A DNA stretch of 29,603 bases from Planctomycetota bacterium (GCA_003509045.1 DODI01000617.1:1-29603); one strand, 5' to 3'. Positions 1-4,204 are shown, counted from the first letter of the stretch. Program-made: numbers and translations. Notes: generated from the sequence alone by a model not told the origin.

Positions 1-1918
1 CCTGCCGCAGGGCCAGGCCGGGGACAGGAATCAGGTTCTCATCAAGGCGGTAGGGTTTGAGGTCATCTGCGCCTCTCTTTGCCGGCAGGATCAGGGAAGC
101 CAGGCCAGTGGCTATTCCCGGCAGCGCCAGGAAGATGAGGCTGGCGACGAGGTTGTAGAAGGTGTGGGTCATGGCAATGTGGAACCCGACGTTTTCCTGC
201 AGGGGGTGAAAGAGGCTGCCGGGAGTGACCTGATCAATGAACCAGAGCAGCAGAGATGTGCCATCCCGGGGCATCAATGAGAGGACGGAAAACAGGATCG
301 TTGTCAGGAGGTGAATCACCAGGATGCAGATGCCCAGGCGGCAGGTGTCGCGATTCTTGAAGAAAGACCGAAAGAGGCTGCTCAGTCCCGAGCCCAGGTT
401 GGCTCCGAGGATCAGCGGCACCATTGAGAGGGGGGCGAGGATTCCTCGCGAGGCCAGGAGCACCGCGATGATGACCACCAGGTTCGAGGTGCGAAGAACC
501 AGGCCGATTCCAGCTCCAGCCAGAAGAAGATAGGTGAAGTTTCCGGCCATGACCGCCCAGGGCTGCTGAAAGGACAGCGAGGCCGGGAGCACATCTGATT
601 TGAACCTGGAGCTCATCTCGAGCTGCTCAATACCTGAGCCGAGCAGGCTCCAGCTTGCCAGCGCCAGGGCGGCGCCGAGAAAGATCCTGCTCCAGTGAGC
701 CAGGCCGAACGAGCGCGGCAGAACGACCAGCAGGAGGCCGAGGCCTGCCAGGGGCGCGATGAGGAAATCGATCCGCAAGGCGAGTATCTGGGGGAGGGCT
801 GTCGCGCCCAGCAGGGCTCCAAGAAGGAGCCCCATGGCTCCCTGGGATTTCAGGAGGCCTCCGTTTACGAAGCTCATCAGGTGGGAGGTTACGGCCGAGT
901 GGGATTGGAAGGTGATCCCGGCAAGAATTCCGCCGAGATAGCCAAGGATTCGGTTCTTCGCCATGCGGCCCGTGGCATGGTGCAGGTGAGGGCCGAGGAC
1001 AATCAGGAAACCGTTGGCGAGAAATCTTACGCCGAGCAGGAAGAAGATCAGGCCAACCGAGATCTCGACAGCGATCCGCAGCCAGTCGATCGCCATGACG
1101 GTGAAGATGATTCCCCTGATGGGGGGGTCGTCTTCGCGTCCTTCAATTTCCGCGAGTACGCGATAGGTTCCTGCGCGATCGCCGAGTGTAAGATCTGTTC
1201 CTTTGCGAACACCGTCTTTGCCGGTTTTGGCGCGCCTGTTGTTCAGGCTCGCCGGCTCGCCGCGAACCGGAGGTTCTCCCGCGATTCTCATATGGACAAT
1301 GCGTCCCTCGAGAGGCACCAGTTCTCCGGTGTCCTGGCGGGCCTGCAATCGCAGGGCGATGGGGATCTCCGAGCCTACAGCGGCCTCGATATTGTCAGCC
1401 AGCTTCTCCACACCGCTGACCACCCGGAACTGTTCGTCCAGATCCTTTCGGCCCTGCCTGGGGATGGAGGCTTCTATTCGCCAGTCGCCGTTCTTATTAC
1501 CAAGTCGTATTCGCACGCTGGCGGTTCCGGACGCATCGGTCTTGACCTCGACATTGTCGAGGCGTTCCGCCGTCTCTTTCTCCCCATCCAGGATGAAAGA
1601 TGGTGAATCTTCTGATGGGCCATTCCCGGATTTGGAGTCTTCGGCGAGACCCTCGAGACGAAAACGGAAGGTGACCGATTGGTTTTTCAGCGGCCGTCTT
1701 CGGCCCCTTCGCCCGAGGAAATCCCGGCTGCTCTGGCCAAGCACACGAACGACCAGGGGTTTGGGAAGAATCTCCCCCGGGAGAGCGCATTGGTGGTTTC
1801 CCGAGAGGGATTCAATGAGCGCGGGGCGGTCATCTGTGGGCGGTTTGTAGCATCCGGTAATGGTACAAAGACAGACCGTCAACGCCAGGATGACTGCATT
1901 ATTAGTCAATAAGCGCAT
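1..1918 (-). CDS. Na/Pi-cotransporter (NptA/SLC34-like) family protein with N-terminal lipoprotein signal and two Big_1-like Ig domains; 3'-truncated at the window edge (start of PhoU-like region)
   Basis: Manual translation, absent from the ORF track because it has no stop in the window. An open frame runs from ATG 1918 to base 1: MRLLTNNAVILALTVCLCTITGC... (lipobox ITGC), then about 250 aa of beta-type sequence. From M275 (nt 1096) there is a polytopic region, including VGLIFFLLGVRFLANGF, FQSHSAVTSHLMSFVNGGLL, LILGANLGSG and HIAMTHTFYNLV. It ends in LDENLIPVPGLALRQ, which resembles the linker into the PhoU domain of this family. Confidence 0.85.
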   Translation of the reverse strand, partial: MRLLTNNAVILALTVCLCTITGCYKPPTDDRPALIESLSGNHQCALPGEILPKPLVVRVLGQSSRDFLGRRGRRRPLKNQSVTFRFRLEGLAEDSKSGNGPSEDSPSFILDGEKETAERLDNVEVKTDASGTASVRIRLGNKNGDWRIEASIPRQGRKDLDEQFRVVSGVEKLADNIEAAVGSEIPIALRLQARQDTGELVPLEGRIVHMRIAGEPPVRGEPASLNNRRAKTGKDGVRKGTDLTLGDRAGTYRVLAEIEGREDDPPIRGIIFTVMAIDWLRIAVEISVGLIFFLLGVRFLANGFLIVLGPHLHHATGRMAKNRILGYLGGILAGITFQSHSAVTSHLMSFVNGGLLKSQGAMGLLLGALLGATALPQILALRIDFLIAPLAGLGLLLVVLPRSFGLAHWSRIFLGAALALASWSLLGSGIEQLEMSSRFKSDVLPASLSFQQPWAVMAGNFTYLLLAGAGIGLVLRTSNLVVIIAVLLASRGILAPLSMVPLILGANLGSGLSSLFRSFFKNRDTCRLGICILVIHLLTTILFSVLSLMPRDGTSLLLWFIDQVTPGSLFHPLQENVGFHIAMTHTFYNLVASLIFLALPGIATGLASLILPAKRGADDLKPYRLDENLIPVPGLALRQ

Positions 1919-1961
1919 AGATCTTCGCCTTGGTTTGCCAAATATGAAGTTAGCCTGCACA

Positions 1962-1991
1962 CTTTCACAGGATCTTCACGATAAGTTAACT
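1962..1991 (+). promoter_or_regulatory. Pho-box-like / OmpR-family operator: three direct repeats at 11-bp period
   Basis: TTCAC (1964-68), TTCAC (1975-79) and TTAAC (1986-90) are exactly 11 bp apart, in the divergent intergenic region between the Na/Pi gene and ppx. Confidence 0.5.
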
Positions 1992-2086
1992 GGATAGATT
2001 CTGCCCCCAATTGTTGAATTCGGAAATACACGGAACCATCTGAAGTAGAACCGGGAAATGCGGTAAGAATCTGCCGTATCGGATCC

Positions 2087-2992
2087 ATGAAAAATTATAC
2101 CGGAACGTCTGCTAAAAACGCTTATCTCGAGTTCGGCTCGACCTCGATCAAGCTCTATATCGTACCTTCTGTCTCAGAAGGAGGAGATGGGGTAGAGAGA
2201 GAGCGCAAGGTACCCTGGAGCCTCGGCTACGATGTCTTCAGCTATGGCCGCATCAGTCCACGGACGATGGCGCATTGCGTCTCTACCCTGAAAGAGCTGC
2301 GTGAAGAGTTCTCCGGAATATCTTTCGAAGATGTTACCGCGGTTGGTACGGCGGCCCTGCGGGAGGCGCAGAACGCCGAAATTTTCAGGCGTCTACTCGA
2401 AAACGAGCTCGGGTTGCGGATCCAGGTGATCGAGGGGGGTATCGAGGCTTTCCTGCTGGAGACAGGCTTCAGGAGCATGGTTGAAAAATTCCCAACAGCT
2501 CTCTTCGATCTTGGCGGCGGCAGCAACGAGATTATCGAATATCTCAATCCGGCCTCTACCCGAAAGACAAGTATCCCTGTAGGGGCGATCAGGCTCCACT
2601 GCCAGCTGCGAAGGGCGAGGACGCTCTACAATTACGTAGAGCAGGGACGGGTGATTGTTGAGAGAGAGATGCGGGAGCACATAGCTGGAAGTATGCCCCG
2701 GTATCCGGAGATGCTCGGCACCGGTGGAACAGTCAGGGCTATCGTGAAGAGCCTCGGTAGAGAATCCTTCACCATCGAGGATCTCCAGGGGCTCATCCAG
2801 CGAGAGATTCATGGAGATGTCTGGACCAATATGCCGCGCCACCGCCGCCTGCTGTTTCTCCCCGGGATCCTTTCTGTCGAGGCGCTCTTTATGACCATGG
2901 GGGTGCGAACCATCACCTATCGCAAGGCCTCCGTGAAAGAGGGACTCATCTCCTTTACCAGCATGCTGCCGGCGATGGGGCGGCCCTCTTAG
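2087..2992 (+). CDS. Ppx/GppA family phosphatase (short form, no HD domain)
   Basis: ASKHA motifs LEFGSTSIKL, VGTAALREAQN, IEGGIEAFL (catalytic Glu), FDLGGGSNE, SIPVGAIRL, GTGGTVR and SVKEG. Confidence 0.85.
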   Translation: MKNYTGTSAKNAYLEFGSTSIKLYIVPSVSEGGDGVERERKVPWSLGYDVFSYGRISPRTMAHCVSTLKELREEFSGISFEDVTAVGTAALREAQNAEIFRRLLENELGLRIQVIEGGIEAFLLETGFRSMVEKFPTALFDLGGGSNEIIEYLNPASTRKTSIPVGAIRLHCQLRRARTLYNYVEQGRVIVEREMREHIAGSMPRYPEMLGTGGTVRAIVKSLGRESFTIEDLQGLIQREIHGDVWTNMPRHRRLLFLPGILSVEALFMTMGVRTITYRKASVKEGLISFTSMLPAMGRPS

Positions 2993-3408
2993 GCGCCTGC
3001 CCGGCCCGGCTCCAGCAATTCGAGGGCCCTGGCGAGCAGTTCGCGAACAGGCTCCTTGCGGAGGAGCTCTGATGCCTCCTCGAAACCGCACCAGCGTCTT
3101 GTACGGCAATCGCGCTCCTTCCAGGTTTCCTCTGCTTCGTAGCTCAGCAGGAACATCTGTACCGAACAGGGCTGCTTGCGTCTGCGGTCAGGATAGCTGC
3201 CAACGGCTTCGCCAATGATCGCGCCGCTGATTCCAGCCTCCTCGGCGCACTCTTTCAGGGCTGTTTCTTCCGGGCTCTCTTTATTTCCGATGACACCCTT
3301 TGGGAAGATCCAGTTTCCCTTTCGCGAGGTGATGATGAGGAATTCCCAGCCGGCAGGACCCTGGCGGAAGGGGATGGCGCCCGCCTGCTTGAGTGGCTTC
3401 GTGTTCAT
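2989..3408 (-). CDS. NUDIX hydrolase, DIPP/Ap6A-hydrolase-like
   Basis: QAGAIPFR...FLIITSRKGNWIFPKG followed by the Nudix box GVIGNKESPEETALKECAEEAGI. Its stop codon overlaps the ppx stop. Confidence 0.88.
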   Translation of the reverse strand: MNTKPLKQAGAIPFRQGPAGWEFLIITSRKGNWIFPKGVIGNKESPEETALKECAEEAGISGAIIGEAVGSYPDRRRKQPCSVQMFLLSYEAEETWKERDCRTRRWCGFEEASELLRKEPVRELLARALELLEPGRAGA

Positions 3409-3556: not shown

Positions 3557-4168
3557 TTACTTCTTGGCAAAGTTCGCCTTGGCGTATTTAGCTTTGCAGT
3601 TGTTGCAGCAGAAGTACTTCGCTTCGCGCTTGGTGTGTACCACCTGCGTGGCAGCGTTGGCCGCTTTACCGCTGATCGGGCATTTGCCTGTGTCAGCCTT
3701 GGCGGCGAGCTTGGCGGAATGCTTTTTCTTGCAGTTACCACAGCAGAAAAAGGTCTTCGTGCCGTTGACGTTCACGAACTGGTCGGCCGTGGCGGCTTTT
3801 CCAGATATGGGGCAGAGCTTCGCCTTACCGGCCTTGGCGCTGAACTTGTTGGCCTTGGCGTATTTGCCGGCGCAATTCTTACAGCAGAAGCTGACAAGCT
3901 GCGAGGTCTCGTGGATTAACTGGGTACCCTTCTTCGAGGCCTTGCCGCTGTACTGGCACTTTCCAGGTCCCGCATCGGCAATCGTCTTGCTGTAGCTCTT
4001 CTTGCAATTATTGCAACAGAAACCGACAGCATTGCCGTTAACTTCGATCGAGATCTTGGGGTTGGCAGCGTTGCCGCTGATGGGGCATTTGGCGGTTTTC
4101 TCAGCCGTAGCCACGCCACCGTAAATCAGTAGTAAAGCAACGGGGATAATCGCTAATTTCTTTTTCAT
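3557..4168 (-). CDS. Secreted Lys/Ala-rich protein with four TRASH/YHS-like Cys repeats (putative metal-binding)
   Basis: Start chosen at MKKKLAII (ATG 4168, with GAGGCAGGA SD-like sequence upstream). Signal peptide ...GGVATA|EK, then four C-(P/Q)-x-S-G...F-C-C-x-N-C motifs. Confidence 0.85.
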   Translation of the reverse strand: MKKKLAIIPVALLLIYGGVATAEKTAKCPISGNAANPKISIEVNGNAVGFCCNNCKKSYSKTIADAGPGKCQYSGKASKKGTQLIHETSQLVSFCCKNCAGKYAKANKFSAKAGKAKLCPISGKAATADQFVNVNGTKTFFCCGNCKKKHSAKLAAKADTGKCPISGKAANAATQVVHTKREAKYFCCNNCKAKYAKANFAKK

Positions 4169-4204
4169 TTCCTGCCTCTTTGTATTTTCCACAGAACCTC
4201 CTCA

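Follow-up and report, generated by a model that had tools for sequence, protein, structure and literature searches.

An Ig-like tandem fused to a divergent Na/Pi-cotransporter-type core and a PhoU domain in three related families of Planctomycetota

Introduction

The described systems closest to the protein reported here are the animal SLC34 transporters and two bacterial proteins, NptA of Staphylococcus aureus and YjbB of Escherichia coli; for its N-terminal part they are the Big_1 domains of intimin and invasin. For SLC34A2, a preprint (10.64898/2026.05.25.727688) describes a pocket that holds one Pi, QSSS serines that bind it, and TS-TNT and TTTT motifs that form the Na sites. In the same text, TM1, TM4 and the extracellular domain make up the moving gate or cap. 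As regards the bacterial proteins, YjbB was described as a Pi exporter in one source (PMC7980370, crediting Motomura 2011), and according to another it was by itself insufficient for Pi import (PMC13170248). In S. aureus NptA, the latter source also reports, signalling is modulated by the PhoU domain (PMC13170248).

Here we analysed a stretch of 29,603 nucleotides from a Planctomycetota bacterium (GCA_003509045.1 DODI01000617.1:1-29603, hereafter the window), at one end of which the original prediction had placed a Na/Pi-cotransporter-family protein with a lipoprotein anchor and two periplasmic Ig-like domains. This architecture was borne out: a lipobox signal, two Ig-like domains, a Na/Pi-cotransporter core and a PhoU domain were found in that order. 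Ig-bearing proteins of this kind appear in public databases only under the names 'Na/Pi symporter', 'Na/Pi cotransporter family protein' and 'PhoU domain-containing protein', and our literature searches found no paper on the lipobox-Ig-NaPi-PhoU architecture.

Results

The gene and its fusion

The Ig-NaPi-PhoU gene was read on the minus strand from an ATG at 1918 to window base 2, giving 639 codons with zero stops (2..1918). These are codons 1-639 of about 849. The gene is without its 3' end because contig C8, whose base 1 is window base 1, ends there in the source assembly, a MAG of 632 contigs that is 72% complete. A full-length twin, P0002 (849 aa), showed 99% identity to the window protein (residues 1-285). 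The recovery of the 3' end, which the original prediction had called for, was achieved from another contig of the assembly: residues 745-849 were found at G000:C462:1-315 with 93% identity to P0002, and about 105 residues between the C8 and C462 pieces are absent from the assembly. An alternative start, GTG at 1960, was ruled out, since in an orthologue from the same genus (L011) a stop codon lies shortly before the conserved ATG.

The Ig part and the transporter were joined in a single ORF of 770-925 aa without internal stop in 20/20 genomes of the Planctomycetota families f1-f3, two of which consist of contigs of complete scale (7.9 and 9.2 Mb). The ORF was uninterrupted on 17 named public MAG contigs too. 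Among the database matches to the N-terminal part, 18/18 carried PF02690 (lengths 748-896 aa), and Na_Pi_cotrans was present in 26 of 30 shorter matches, which were chosen among the 150 phmmer matches listed for query residues 1-274. The proposed fusion, checked as a possible artefact, showed no frame or assembly join; it is genuine and conserved across three related Planctomycetota families.

A second Ig-bearing group (group I), with more canonical sequences, was found in Brocadiia and Victivallales MAGs, for example HOX39516.1 (Candidatus Brocadiia) and MBT7164478.1 (Victivallales); P0042, P0091 and P0105 belong to it as well. Most planctomycete homologues matched P0042 only from about residue 240-258, i.e. 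without the Ig part. The expectation that canonical relatives begin directly at the membrane domain also held, as paralogues in related genomes matched from query residue 277-288 in open frames of 562-594 aa. The hosts of the derived clade, to which the window protein belongs, are abundant marine Planctomycetota.

Signal peptide and Ig-like domains

Lipoboxes follow the consensus [LVI][ASTVI][GAS]C after a hydrophobic signal. The window protein has a hydrophobic stretch and then ITGC (signal peptide 1850..1918, minus strand; lipobox nt 1850-1861, residues 20-23), the signal sequence MRLLTNNAVILALTVCLCTITG leading up to the lipobox Cys, and ITG-C23 was thus located as claimed. The Cys was kept in 15 of 16 rows of the clade alignment A1, the 16th row being N-terminally truncated, in 17/17 rows of alignment A2 and in 4/4 group-I proteins. 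Both Lgt (PF01790, E 3.9e-56) and LspA (PF01252, E 5.5e-26) are encoded in the source genome. The N-terminus reads as a lipoprotein-type signal peptide with a predicted lipid anchor at Cys23.

The extension before the first TM helix, put at 274 aa in the original prediction, was about 278 aa long in the AlphaFold2 model, where the helix begins at residue 279; the extension was all-beta, and core and tail were helical. It comprises Ig-like domain 1, of Big_1 type with two insertions (residues 33-168; 1415..1822, minus strand) and all-beta in both models, and Ig-like domain 2 (residues 169-277; 1088..1414, minus strand), which matched intimin D0 and runs straight into TM1. Both Big_1-type signatures that had been quoted were present as described, at K126-A150 and K231-A256. 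When residues 1-274 were searched with phmmer against 1.84 billion proteins, 200 matches were obtained at E<=1e-3, 46 of them at E<=1e-10. Ten of the matches longer than 880 aa were chosen, and 10/10 proved to be Big_1/Invasin_D3 proteins of many repeats, each containing 6-17 Big_1 stretches. For example, P0022, which bears 17 Big_1 stretches, was matched at E 7.6e-40 over 13 stretches, and in BLASTP against it the two signatures lined up in phase with consecutive Big_1 repeats (best E 4e-10). The Pfam Big_1 model (PF02369) gave no match at E<=1 in the window protein and matched 0/16 clade members, and the Big_1 homology of the window protein rests on the repeat-protein matches and the fold, not on the Pfam model.

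The separate N-terminal model (pLDDT 86.3, pTM 0.80) aligned with intimin D0-D1 (6tpl_B; Z 12.9, rmsd 6.8 A, 184 aligned; Foldseek E 9.2e-8), and Ig domain 2 with intimin D0 (6tqd_A; Z 11.2, rmsd 1.9 A, 91 aligned). The fold search of the tandem also gave 1f02_I (Z 11.2), and residues 5-148 of the N-terminal model matched Ig-like domains of GH2 galactosidases (Z 9.6). The N-terminal part is two Big_1-type Ig-like domains, on evidence far above chance.

One of the two insertions in domain 1 is a conserved basic hairpin, SRDFLGRRGRRRP (residues 64-76; 1691..1729, minus strand), in which D66, G69, R70, G72 and R74 were invariant in alignment A1. Ordinary Big_1 repeats are without it, and in P0022 it fell on a 10-residue gap (BLASTP); group I has an equivalent, LLGGKGxRxPV. 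The other is an acidic variable loop (residues 89-120; 1559..1654, minus strand) of low model confidence (pLDDT <50 at residues 89-100 and 113-117), whose length varied in A1 and which was not present in group I. At the borders of the tandem, nine residues (24-32) lie between the predicted lipidated Cys and the first strand (residues 34-39), and the last Ig2 strand (267-277) passes directly into helix 279-311 with no linker.

Membrane core and PhoU domain

The core is of the NptA/YjbB/SLC34 type (residues 278-612; 83..1087, minus strand). PF02690 matched the window protein in two stretches, best at residues 292-425, with 87.8 bits against a cut-off of 29.1, and it matched 16/16 clade members. 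Only the first 12 residues of the PhoU-type domain (NLIPVPGLALRQ; 2..37, minus strand) lie in the window, the remainder being off the contig, at C462. In P0002, residues 628-849 aligned with PhoU 1t72_A (Z 25.4, rmsd 2.2 A, 211 aligned); the C-terminal PhoU domain scored 26.1 vs 23.5 with Pfam PhoU (PF01895), and its ERIGDH-type motifs were degenerate in the window clade. In the fold searches with the 849-aa model, the best 50 matches of each concerned the Ig or PhoU parts, with no SLC34 chain among them. A phmmer search of P0002 against the PDB gave the SLC34A2 chain 9z60_A at a weak E of 0.055, and the group-I profile matched the same chain at E 2.9e-35, collinear across both repeats.

From the AlphaFold2 model, the core was read as seven TM helices and two re-entrant hairpins with the N-terminus outside. 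Counts of K+R on the predicted cytoplasmic side were 7-13 vs 1-7 on the outer side in 16/16 clade members, and E. coli YjbB has 12 on the cytoplasmic side vs 2 on the outer side. The architecture implies, as far as the model goes, an N-out, C-in core with seven crossings, opposite to animal SLC34.

Altered motifs

Sequence comparison placed QSHS in repeat 1 (896..907, minus strand) and RTSN in repeat 2 (482..493, minus strand) at the sites of the canonical QSSS substrate motifs. Throughout the window clade, the repeat-1 motif was QS[HASW]S and RTSN was invariant, with R476, T477 and N479 invariant in A1; QSSS in both repeats was thus not found. GAxLGAT and GANLGS stood in place of GANIGTT and GDNIGTT. 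E. coli YjbB has QSSN and YSSL at the QSSS sites, and its TM5 motif, GANLGSG, is common to the window clade. The window protein scored below the NCBIfam cut-offs (TIGR00704 69.1 vs 210.1; NF037997 48.5 vs 50), as did full-length P0002 (68 and 48.2, respectively), while the group-I protein P0042 passed both. In the core tree, which was a quick search, the stem branch of the window clade measured 1.04 changes per column (SH-aLRT 100%).

Gene neighbourhood

The divergent intergenic region that the Ig-NaPi-PhoU gene has in common with ppx (1919..2086, without strand) was highly conserved in the genus, with a mean column identity of 88% (7 sequences) and long invariant blocks. Beyond it, the plus strand encodes a short (301 aa) Ppx/GppA-family phosphohydrolase (2087..2992; PF02541 E 4.5e-26, 92.4 vs a cut-off of 27), which reached 124.9 bits vs a cut-off of 307 with TIGR03706 and stayed far under the cut-offs of the GppA and Ppx equivalogs. 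The ppx gene was the divergent neighbour in 19/19 and 17/17 clade loci (overlapping sets), and it was more conserved than the transporter (51-98% vs 32-94% identity). A Nudix hydrolase gene convergent with ppx (2989..3408, minus strand; PF00293 E 9.9e-13) was frequent, not universal, being found in 12/17 clade loci (3-kb flanks). On the downstream side of the Ig-NaPi-PhoU gene the context was not conserved: members of the genus encode a DsbH-like thioredoxin protein there, a distant member encodes ThrRS, and no operon was seen beyond the divergent ppx.

By our reading of the sequence, the Ppx/GppA neighbour has no signal peptide; it is therefore cytoplasmic and excluded as a periplasmic partner. 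Ppx/GppA enzymes act on pppGpp too, and NF008260 was among the NCBIfam matches bearing on this activity. Searches for PPK1 and PPK2 found neither gene in any of the 13 genomes of family f1 that were covered, of which five are at least 90% complete, or in 3/3 genomes of family f3, so that the Ppx/GppA substrate may not be polyphosphate. A chain leading from polyP to Pi and then to export is not supported in family f1. The Ig module is not tied to Ppx either, because group I has the same Ig module and ppx was found in 0/8 of its loci (1.5-kb flanks).

Discussion

Taken as a whole, our results are best explained, with moderate confidence, by an inner-membrane protein of about 849 aa, a divergent oxyanion transporter with a periplasmic Ig cap and a cytoplasmic PhoU domain. 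Such a protein would move phosphate or a close oxyanion under the control of its own PhoU domain, and it would dispose of or balance cytoplasmic Pi freed by the Ppx/GppA (often also Nudix) neighbours. The canonical Na+ sites are probably no longer used; their loss is probable because RTSN carries an invariant Arg and the Na-site motifs of TM2 and TM5 are changed, that of TM5 as in YjbB. The altered motifs could equally mean that transport was lost. Together with the strict Ppx/GppA partner and the lack of any PPK found, RTSN and the altered Na-site motifs suggest that the substrate, the coupling or the part played in phosphate homeostasis has changed.

The original prediction had seen in the N-terminal part a lipid-anchored Ig stalk on a Pi-transporter fold. 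It had further proposed that the stalk could capture a ligand or partner, such as a phosphatase or a polyP/organophosphate source, a role that is conjectural. The Ig domains on such a fold were found; a free stalk is doubtful, since an end-to-end tandem with short linkers on both sides would be tethered to one membrane at both ends. Held by the lipid anchor at one end and TM1 at the other, the tandem would span the outer face as an arch or cap, mechanically coupled to TM1, a geometry deduced only from the linker lengths and the rmsd of 6.8 A to intimin D0-D1. A complex prediction of the tandem (24-278) with the core (279-632) gave a score of 0.00 (mark 0.32), which speaks neither for nor against docking of a cap. 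By analogy, an Ig cap before TM1 may parallel the SLC34 extracellular cap, which lies just before the out-to-in gate helix TM4, and the fusion places a folded domain on a helix that belongs to the moving gate in SLC34A2. The tandem and the PhoU tail together also serve as a topology marker, implying that the core of bacterial NptA/YjbB proteins begins on the outer side and passes through the membrane seven times. In the literature searched, we found no statement of a bacterial core orientation opposite to that of SLC34. An N-out orientation matters when SLC34 structures are used as a guide to the bacterial proteins, and it bears on the exporter behaviour of YjbB.

The tandem could instead be purely structural, serving oligomerisation, spacing or envelope attachment outside the transport cycle. 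Big_1 domains are modules of general use in surface proteins, and the majority of the tandem's conserved residues belong to the Big_1 repeat itself. However, the tandem and its specific hairpin insertion were kept across two deeply diverged groups, and the tandem is joined to TM1 without a linker, and we consider a purely structural role unlikely.

The uptake of condensed phosphate deserves attention as well. Pyrophosphate or very short polyP would be imported from sea water and then cleaved to Pi by the cytoplasmic Ppx/GppA, with the basic hairpin of Ig1 gathering the polyanion and the Arg-containing site replacing Na+ coupling. The strict pairing with ppx in a family whose genomes yielded neither PPK1 nor PPK2 is in keeping with such uptake, under which the Ppx substrate must come from a source other than endogenous PPK, and so are the conserved basic hairpin on the outer domain and the invariant Arg in the substrate hairpin. 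Yet group I has a similar hairpin together with canonical QSSS and no ppx neighbour, and the activity of Ppx/GppA enzymes on pppGpp offers them another substrate. Besides, the SLC34-type pocket is described in the preprint as holding one Pi (10.64898/2026.05.25.727688). We therefore regard import of condensed phosphate as decidedly improbable, and we give a slightly slimmer chance to the fuller proposal that, judging from sequence, the transporter and ppx might together take up condensed phosphate from outside and hydrolyse it, in marine planctomycetes for which our searches gave no PPK. Were it true, the NptA/SLC34 family would gain its first member with a substrate besides orthophosphate, and its first whose outer domain collects the substrate.

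Another reading holds that the core has lost transport and acts as a transceptor, the Ig part sensing an envelope or external cue and PhoU relaying it, e.g. to Ppx/GppA. Degeneracy is seen in both substrate motifs and at the Na sites, the NCBIfam cut-offs were missed, and the window clade sits on a long stem branch; the source genome has a separate PitA-type PHO4 transporter, and a signalling role would fit the modulation by the PhoU domain of S. aureus NptA reported in PMC13170248. On the other hand, H-bond donors were retained at most Pi-contact positions (S339, S341, T477, S478 and N479, with T373 nearly invariant), and the membrane core was strongly conserved within the window clade (alignment A1). 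Moreover, motifs of a similar degeneracy occur in E. coli YjbB, to which PMC7980370 ascribes Pi export. A sensor without transport thus appears about as improbable as the import of condensed phosphate. Finally, an assembly or frame error fusing a lipoprotein gene to a transporter gene, which the position of the gene, where a contig of the fragmented MAG ends, and four short matches (243-345 aa) with the Ig part alone might suggest, is refuted for practical purposes by the same unbroken ORF in the 20/20 related genomes and the 17 named public MAG contigs, and two of the short Ig matches end within the start of Na_Pi_cotrans, which marks them as truncated genes. A divergent oxyanion transporter with an Ig cap is the reading we retain.

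Comparison with known systems

The Ig-like domains of the window protein are alike in fold and sequence signature to the Big_1 domains of intimin and invasin, and the group-I profile matched invasin 1cwv_A at E 8.5e-4. However, intimin and invasin are outer-membrane adhesins, whereas the window protein has just two such domains, placed on an inner-membrane transporter. It also differs from ordinary Big_1 repeats by the basic hairpin and the acidic loop that are added to its first domain.

Group I has the plan of the window clade, from the lipobox through two Ig domains that include the hairpin insertion to the core and PhoU, and it groups with the window clade in the core tree (33 rows, SH-aLRT 85). 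Unlike the window clade, its motifs are all canonical (QSSS in both repeats, GANIGTT/GDNIGTT and the ERIGDH PhoU motifs), TIGR00704 and NF037997 are passed, and Pfam Big_1 matches directly, with P0042, P0090, P0091, P0105 and P0126 above 34.9 bits. A ppx gene within 1.5 kb, fixed in the window clade, was found in 0/8 group-I loci.

NptA of S. aureus and YjbB of E. coli have the same PF02690 core and C-terminal PhoU domain as the window protein, and the same orientation, as implied by the K+R bias. The window protein adds a lipobox signal and about 255 aa of Ig before TM1, whereas E. coli YjbB starts at TM1. It differs further in RTSN as second substrate motif and in falling below the NCBIfam cut-offs. 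Its gene has a fixed divergent Ppx/GppA neighbour, while yjbB of E. coli K-12 lies between metH and pepE.

The two-repeat core of SLC34 with its hairpins HP1 and HP2 (SLC34A2, PDB 9z60) is homologous to the core of the window type, and in both an extracytoplasmic domain would, by analogy, come just before the out-to-in gate helix. In SLC34, however, a helical loop set between the two repeats makes up the cap, in place of an N-terminal Ig tandem, the N and C termini are cytoplasmic with 8 TM helices as against an outside start and 7 crossings in the window protein, and there is no PhoU domain. Set beside these systems, the window protein appears to belong to a known transporter family, as a branch of it that has gone undescribed, and not to a new kind of system.

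Results

The window protein represents a conserved and as yet uncharacterised variant of the NptA/YjbB family, so far found only in PVC bacteria, and the clade formed with its close relatives (the window clade) is further derived. The 5' part of its Ig-NaPi-PhoU transporter gene occupied positions 2..1918 of the minus strand, starting with an ATG at 1918 and continuing for 639 codons without a stop until it left the window at base 2. The 3' end was missing because window base 1 is also base 1 of contig C8, an assembly cut in a MAG of 632 contigs and 72% completeness. The final 105 codons, whose recovery the original prediction had called for, were located on the edge of a second contig (G000:C462:1-315), which leaves an unassembled gap of about 105 codons. 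P0002, a full-length twin of 849 aa in the public protein collection, was 99% identical to the window protein over residues 1-285, versus 93% for the C462 piece. A GTG at 1960 was rejected as the start, since a same-genus orthologue has a stop just 5' of the conserved ATG.

Na_Pi_cotrans was the sole Pfam match of the window protein (score 87.8 bits, cut-off 29.1, in two stretches). The full-length AlphaFold2 model, built from a 16-sequence alignment (pLDDT 80.0, pTM 0.60), placed in order a signal helix, strands at 34-277, membrane helices at 279 to about 610 and, at 633-843, a bundle of helices with the whole of the PhoU fold (211 residues aligned to 1t72_A, Z 25.4, rmsd 2.2 Å). The N-terminal part modelled alone gave two beta-sandwich domains (pLDDT 86.3, pTM 0.80), which as a pair resembled intimin D0-D1 (6tpl_B: Z 12.9, rmsd 6.8 Å, 184 aligned), with domain 2 alone close to intimin D0 (Z 11.2, rmsd 1.9 Å, 91 aligned); Foldseek also returned the intimin likeness. 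The architectural part of the original prediction, a lipoprotein signal and two Ig domains ahead of a Na/Pi core, was borne out. The lipobox (ITG-C23) was likewise present as predicted, following a hydrophobic stretch, and its Cys was conserved in 15/16, 17/17 and 4/4 members of three sequence sets, the lone exception being N-terminally truncated. Both Lgt and LspA were encoded by the genome, and Cys23 is the predicted lipidation site. Membrane proteins combining a lipid modification with further TM helices have a precedent in haem-copper oxidase subunit II (CyoA, QoxA).

Residues 1-274 gave 200 matches at E<=1e-3 among 1.84 billion representatives, and all ten long matches picked by hand carried 6-17 Big_1 repeats. 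In BLASTP against one long repeat protein, the two Big_1 signatures noticed originally fell in register with consecutive repeats, and SRDFLGRRGRRRP was an insertion in Ig domain 1 relative to them. The N-terminal extension thus consists of divergent Ig domains of the Big_1 type, identified by transitive homology and fold while the curated Pfam Big_1 model missed them (no match at E<=1 in the window protein or in any of 16 clade members). When 30 shorter matches were chosen by length and match position from those listed for residues 1-274, 26 carried Na_Pi_cotrans and 11 a direct Pfam Big_1 match.

The core motifs of the window clade were divergent. The canonical QSSS of repeat 1 was QS[HASW]S (QSSN in E. 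coli YjbB), and that of repeat 2 was an invariant RTSN (YSSL in YjbB); GANIGTT in TM2 became GAxLGAT (YjbB GADVGTA), GDNIGTT in TM5 became GANLGS (YjbB GANLGSG), and the ERIGDH motifs of PhoU were likewise degenerate. The clade scored under the cut-offs of both TIGR00704 and NF037997, whereas group I, a second Ig-bearing group with more canonical motifs, passed both. In SLC34A2, according to the preprint on its structure (10.64898/2026.05.25.727688), Pi is coordinated by the QSSS serines and the Na sites are built by TS-TNT and TTTT motifs, which we equate here with the TM2 and TM5 motifs. At most of the positions that contact Pi, the window clade retained a hydroxyl or amide donor; it gained an Arg and lost Na-site residues. 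From these residues we infer a putative oxyanion carrier in which Na+ coupling is altered or absent; the main alternative is that a core so changed has lost transport. A PitA-type PHO4 phosphate transporter was also encoded (G000:C99:1198-2577, E 5.7e-118), which gives this genome another candidate Pi carrier besides the Ig-bearing protein.

Next to the putative carrier, a divergent Ppx/GppA-family gene, ppx (window 2087-2992; 301 aa, PF02541, E 4.5e-26), was the neighbour in 19/19 and 17/17 loci of two overlapping sets, and was better conserved than the transporter. The 168-bp spacer between them (1919-2086) was 88% identical across seven genus members, with extended invariant blocks such as CCCCAATTGTTGAATTCGGAAA, and probably serves both genes as a regulatory region. 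A Nudix gene came next in 12 of the 17 loci. No ppx was found within 1.5 kb in group I (0/8 loci), and the genes downstream of the transporter were not conserved across the loci compared. A further minus-strand gene of the window (3557-4192) encoded a protein of 211 aa that begins with a signal-like stretch, contains four Cys-rich repeats (KCPISGKAA...FCCxNCKxK) and matches TRASH-type metal-binding domains; this gene adjoined the Nudix gene at another locus from the same genus (L030:724-1362).

YjbB is termed a Pi exporter in PMC7980370, citing Motomura 2011, and ppx first suggested a YjbB-like disposal of Pi from polyphosphate. This idea was demoted, as searches found neither PPK1 (PF02503) nor PPK2 (PF03976) in 13/13 genomes of the window's own family f1 (G000-G012, including five with a completeness of 90% or more) or in 3/3 of the related family f3; PPK1/PPK2 were present in some genomes of a third family, f2. 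The Ppx/GppA protein may therefore act on pppGpp, on short polyP taken up from outside or on another substrate, and its strict conservation in f1 genomes with no detected PPK raises the question of what this substrate is. Only the general claim is retained that the transporter is functionally linked to a cytoplasmic phosphohydrolase.

An assembly or frame join of two genes was ruled out, because one unbroken ORF of 770-925 aa was present in 20/20 genomes of the three families, two of these ORFs lying within contigs 7.9 and 9.2 Mb long. The Ig-transporter fusion is real. Public contigs bearing it were titled Planctomycetota or Planctomycetia MAGs, and canonical paralogues in related genomes started at the membrane domain, as had been expected of canonical relatives. 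Among 301 sampled Planctomycetota genomes, 104 had a homologue at E<=1e-20, with the match reaching the Ig region in only 16 of these. Group I, represented among the 30 shorter matches and found in Candidatus Brocadiia and Victivallales MAGs under the database name 'Na/Pi symporter', had the lipobox, two Ig domains and hairpin insertion in common with the window clade. In a rapid maximum-likelihood tree based on the core alone (56 hand-chosen rows; two rows with short cores left out), all 33 Ig-bearing rows grouped together (SH-aLRT 85), and the 19 rows of the window clade stood on a long stem (1.04 changes per column, 100% support). This fits a single origin of the Ig fusion followed by rapid change, at an only moderately supported node and with sampling that was not blind.

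Discussion

Our literature search found no paper on an Ig-bearing NptA/YjbB architecture. In the AlphaFold2 model, the core (window 83-1087) made seven crossings and two hairpins. Together with the exported N-terminus, the cytoplasmic PhoU and the K+R bias (in E. coli YjbB, L043:9732-11360, 12 inside versus 2 outside), this suggests that the window protein is N-out and C-in. Only nine residues (24-32) lay between Cys23 and the first strand (34-39), and Ig2 passed straight into TM1, so that an end-to-end tandem would have both of its ends fixed to one membrane. The free, ligand-capturing stalk of the original prediction is thus geometrically doubtful; we propose that the Ig tandem would instead lie over the membrane as an arch or cap.

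The SLC34A2a sequence aligned collinearly with the group-I profile (E 2.9e-35), and SLC34A2, according to the preprint (10.64898/2026.05.25.727688), has eight TM helices and both termini in the cytoplasm. The bacterial core would therefore be inverted relative to SLC34: NptA/YjbB cores appear to have the N-terminus outside and seven crossings, whereas animal SLC34 has it inside and eight, and repeat 1 of the bacterial core would take the topology of SLC34 repeat 2. No statement of this opposite orientation was found in the literature searched. According to the same preprint, SLC34A2 has a mobile gate or cap made up of TM1, TM4 and the extracellular domain, and the extracellular domain stands before the out-to-in helix TM4. 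In both proteins an out-to-in helix would be preceded by an outer domain, namely the Ig tandem before TM1 here and the extracellular domain before TM4 in SLC34A2.
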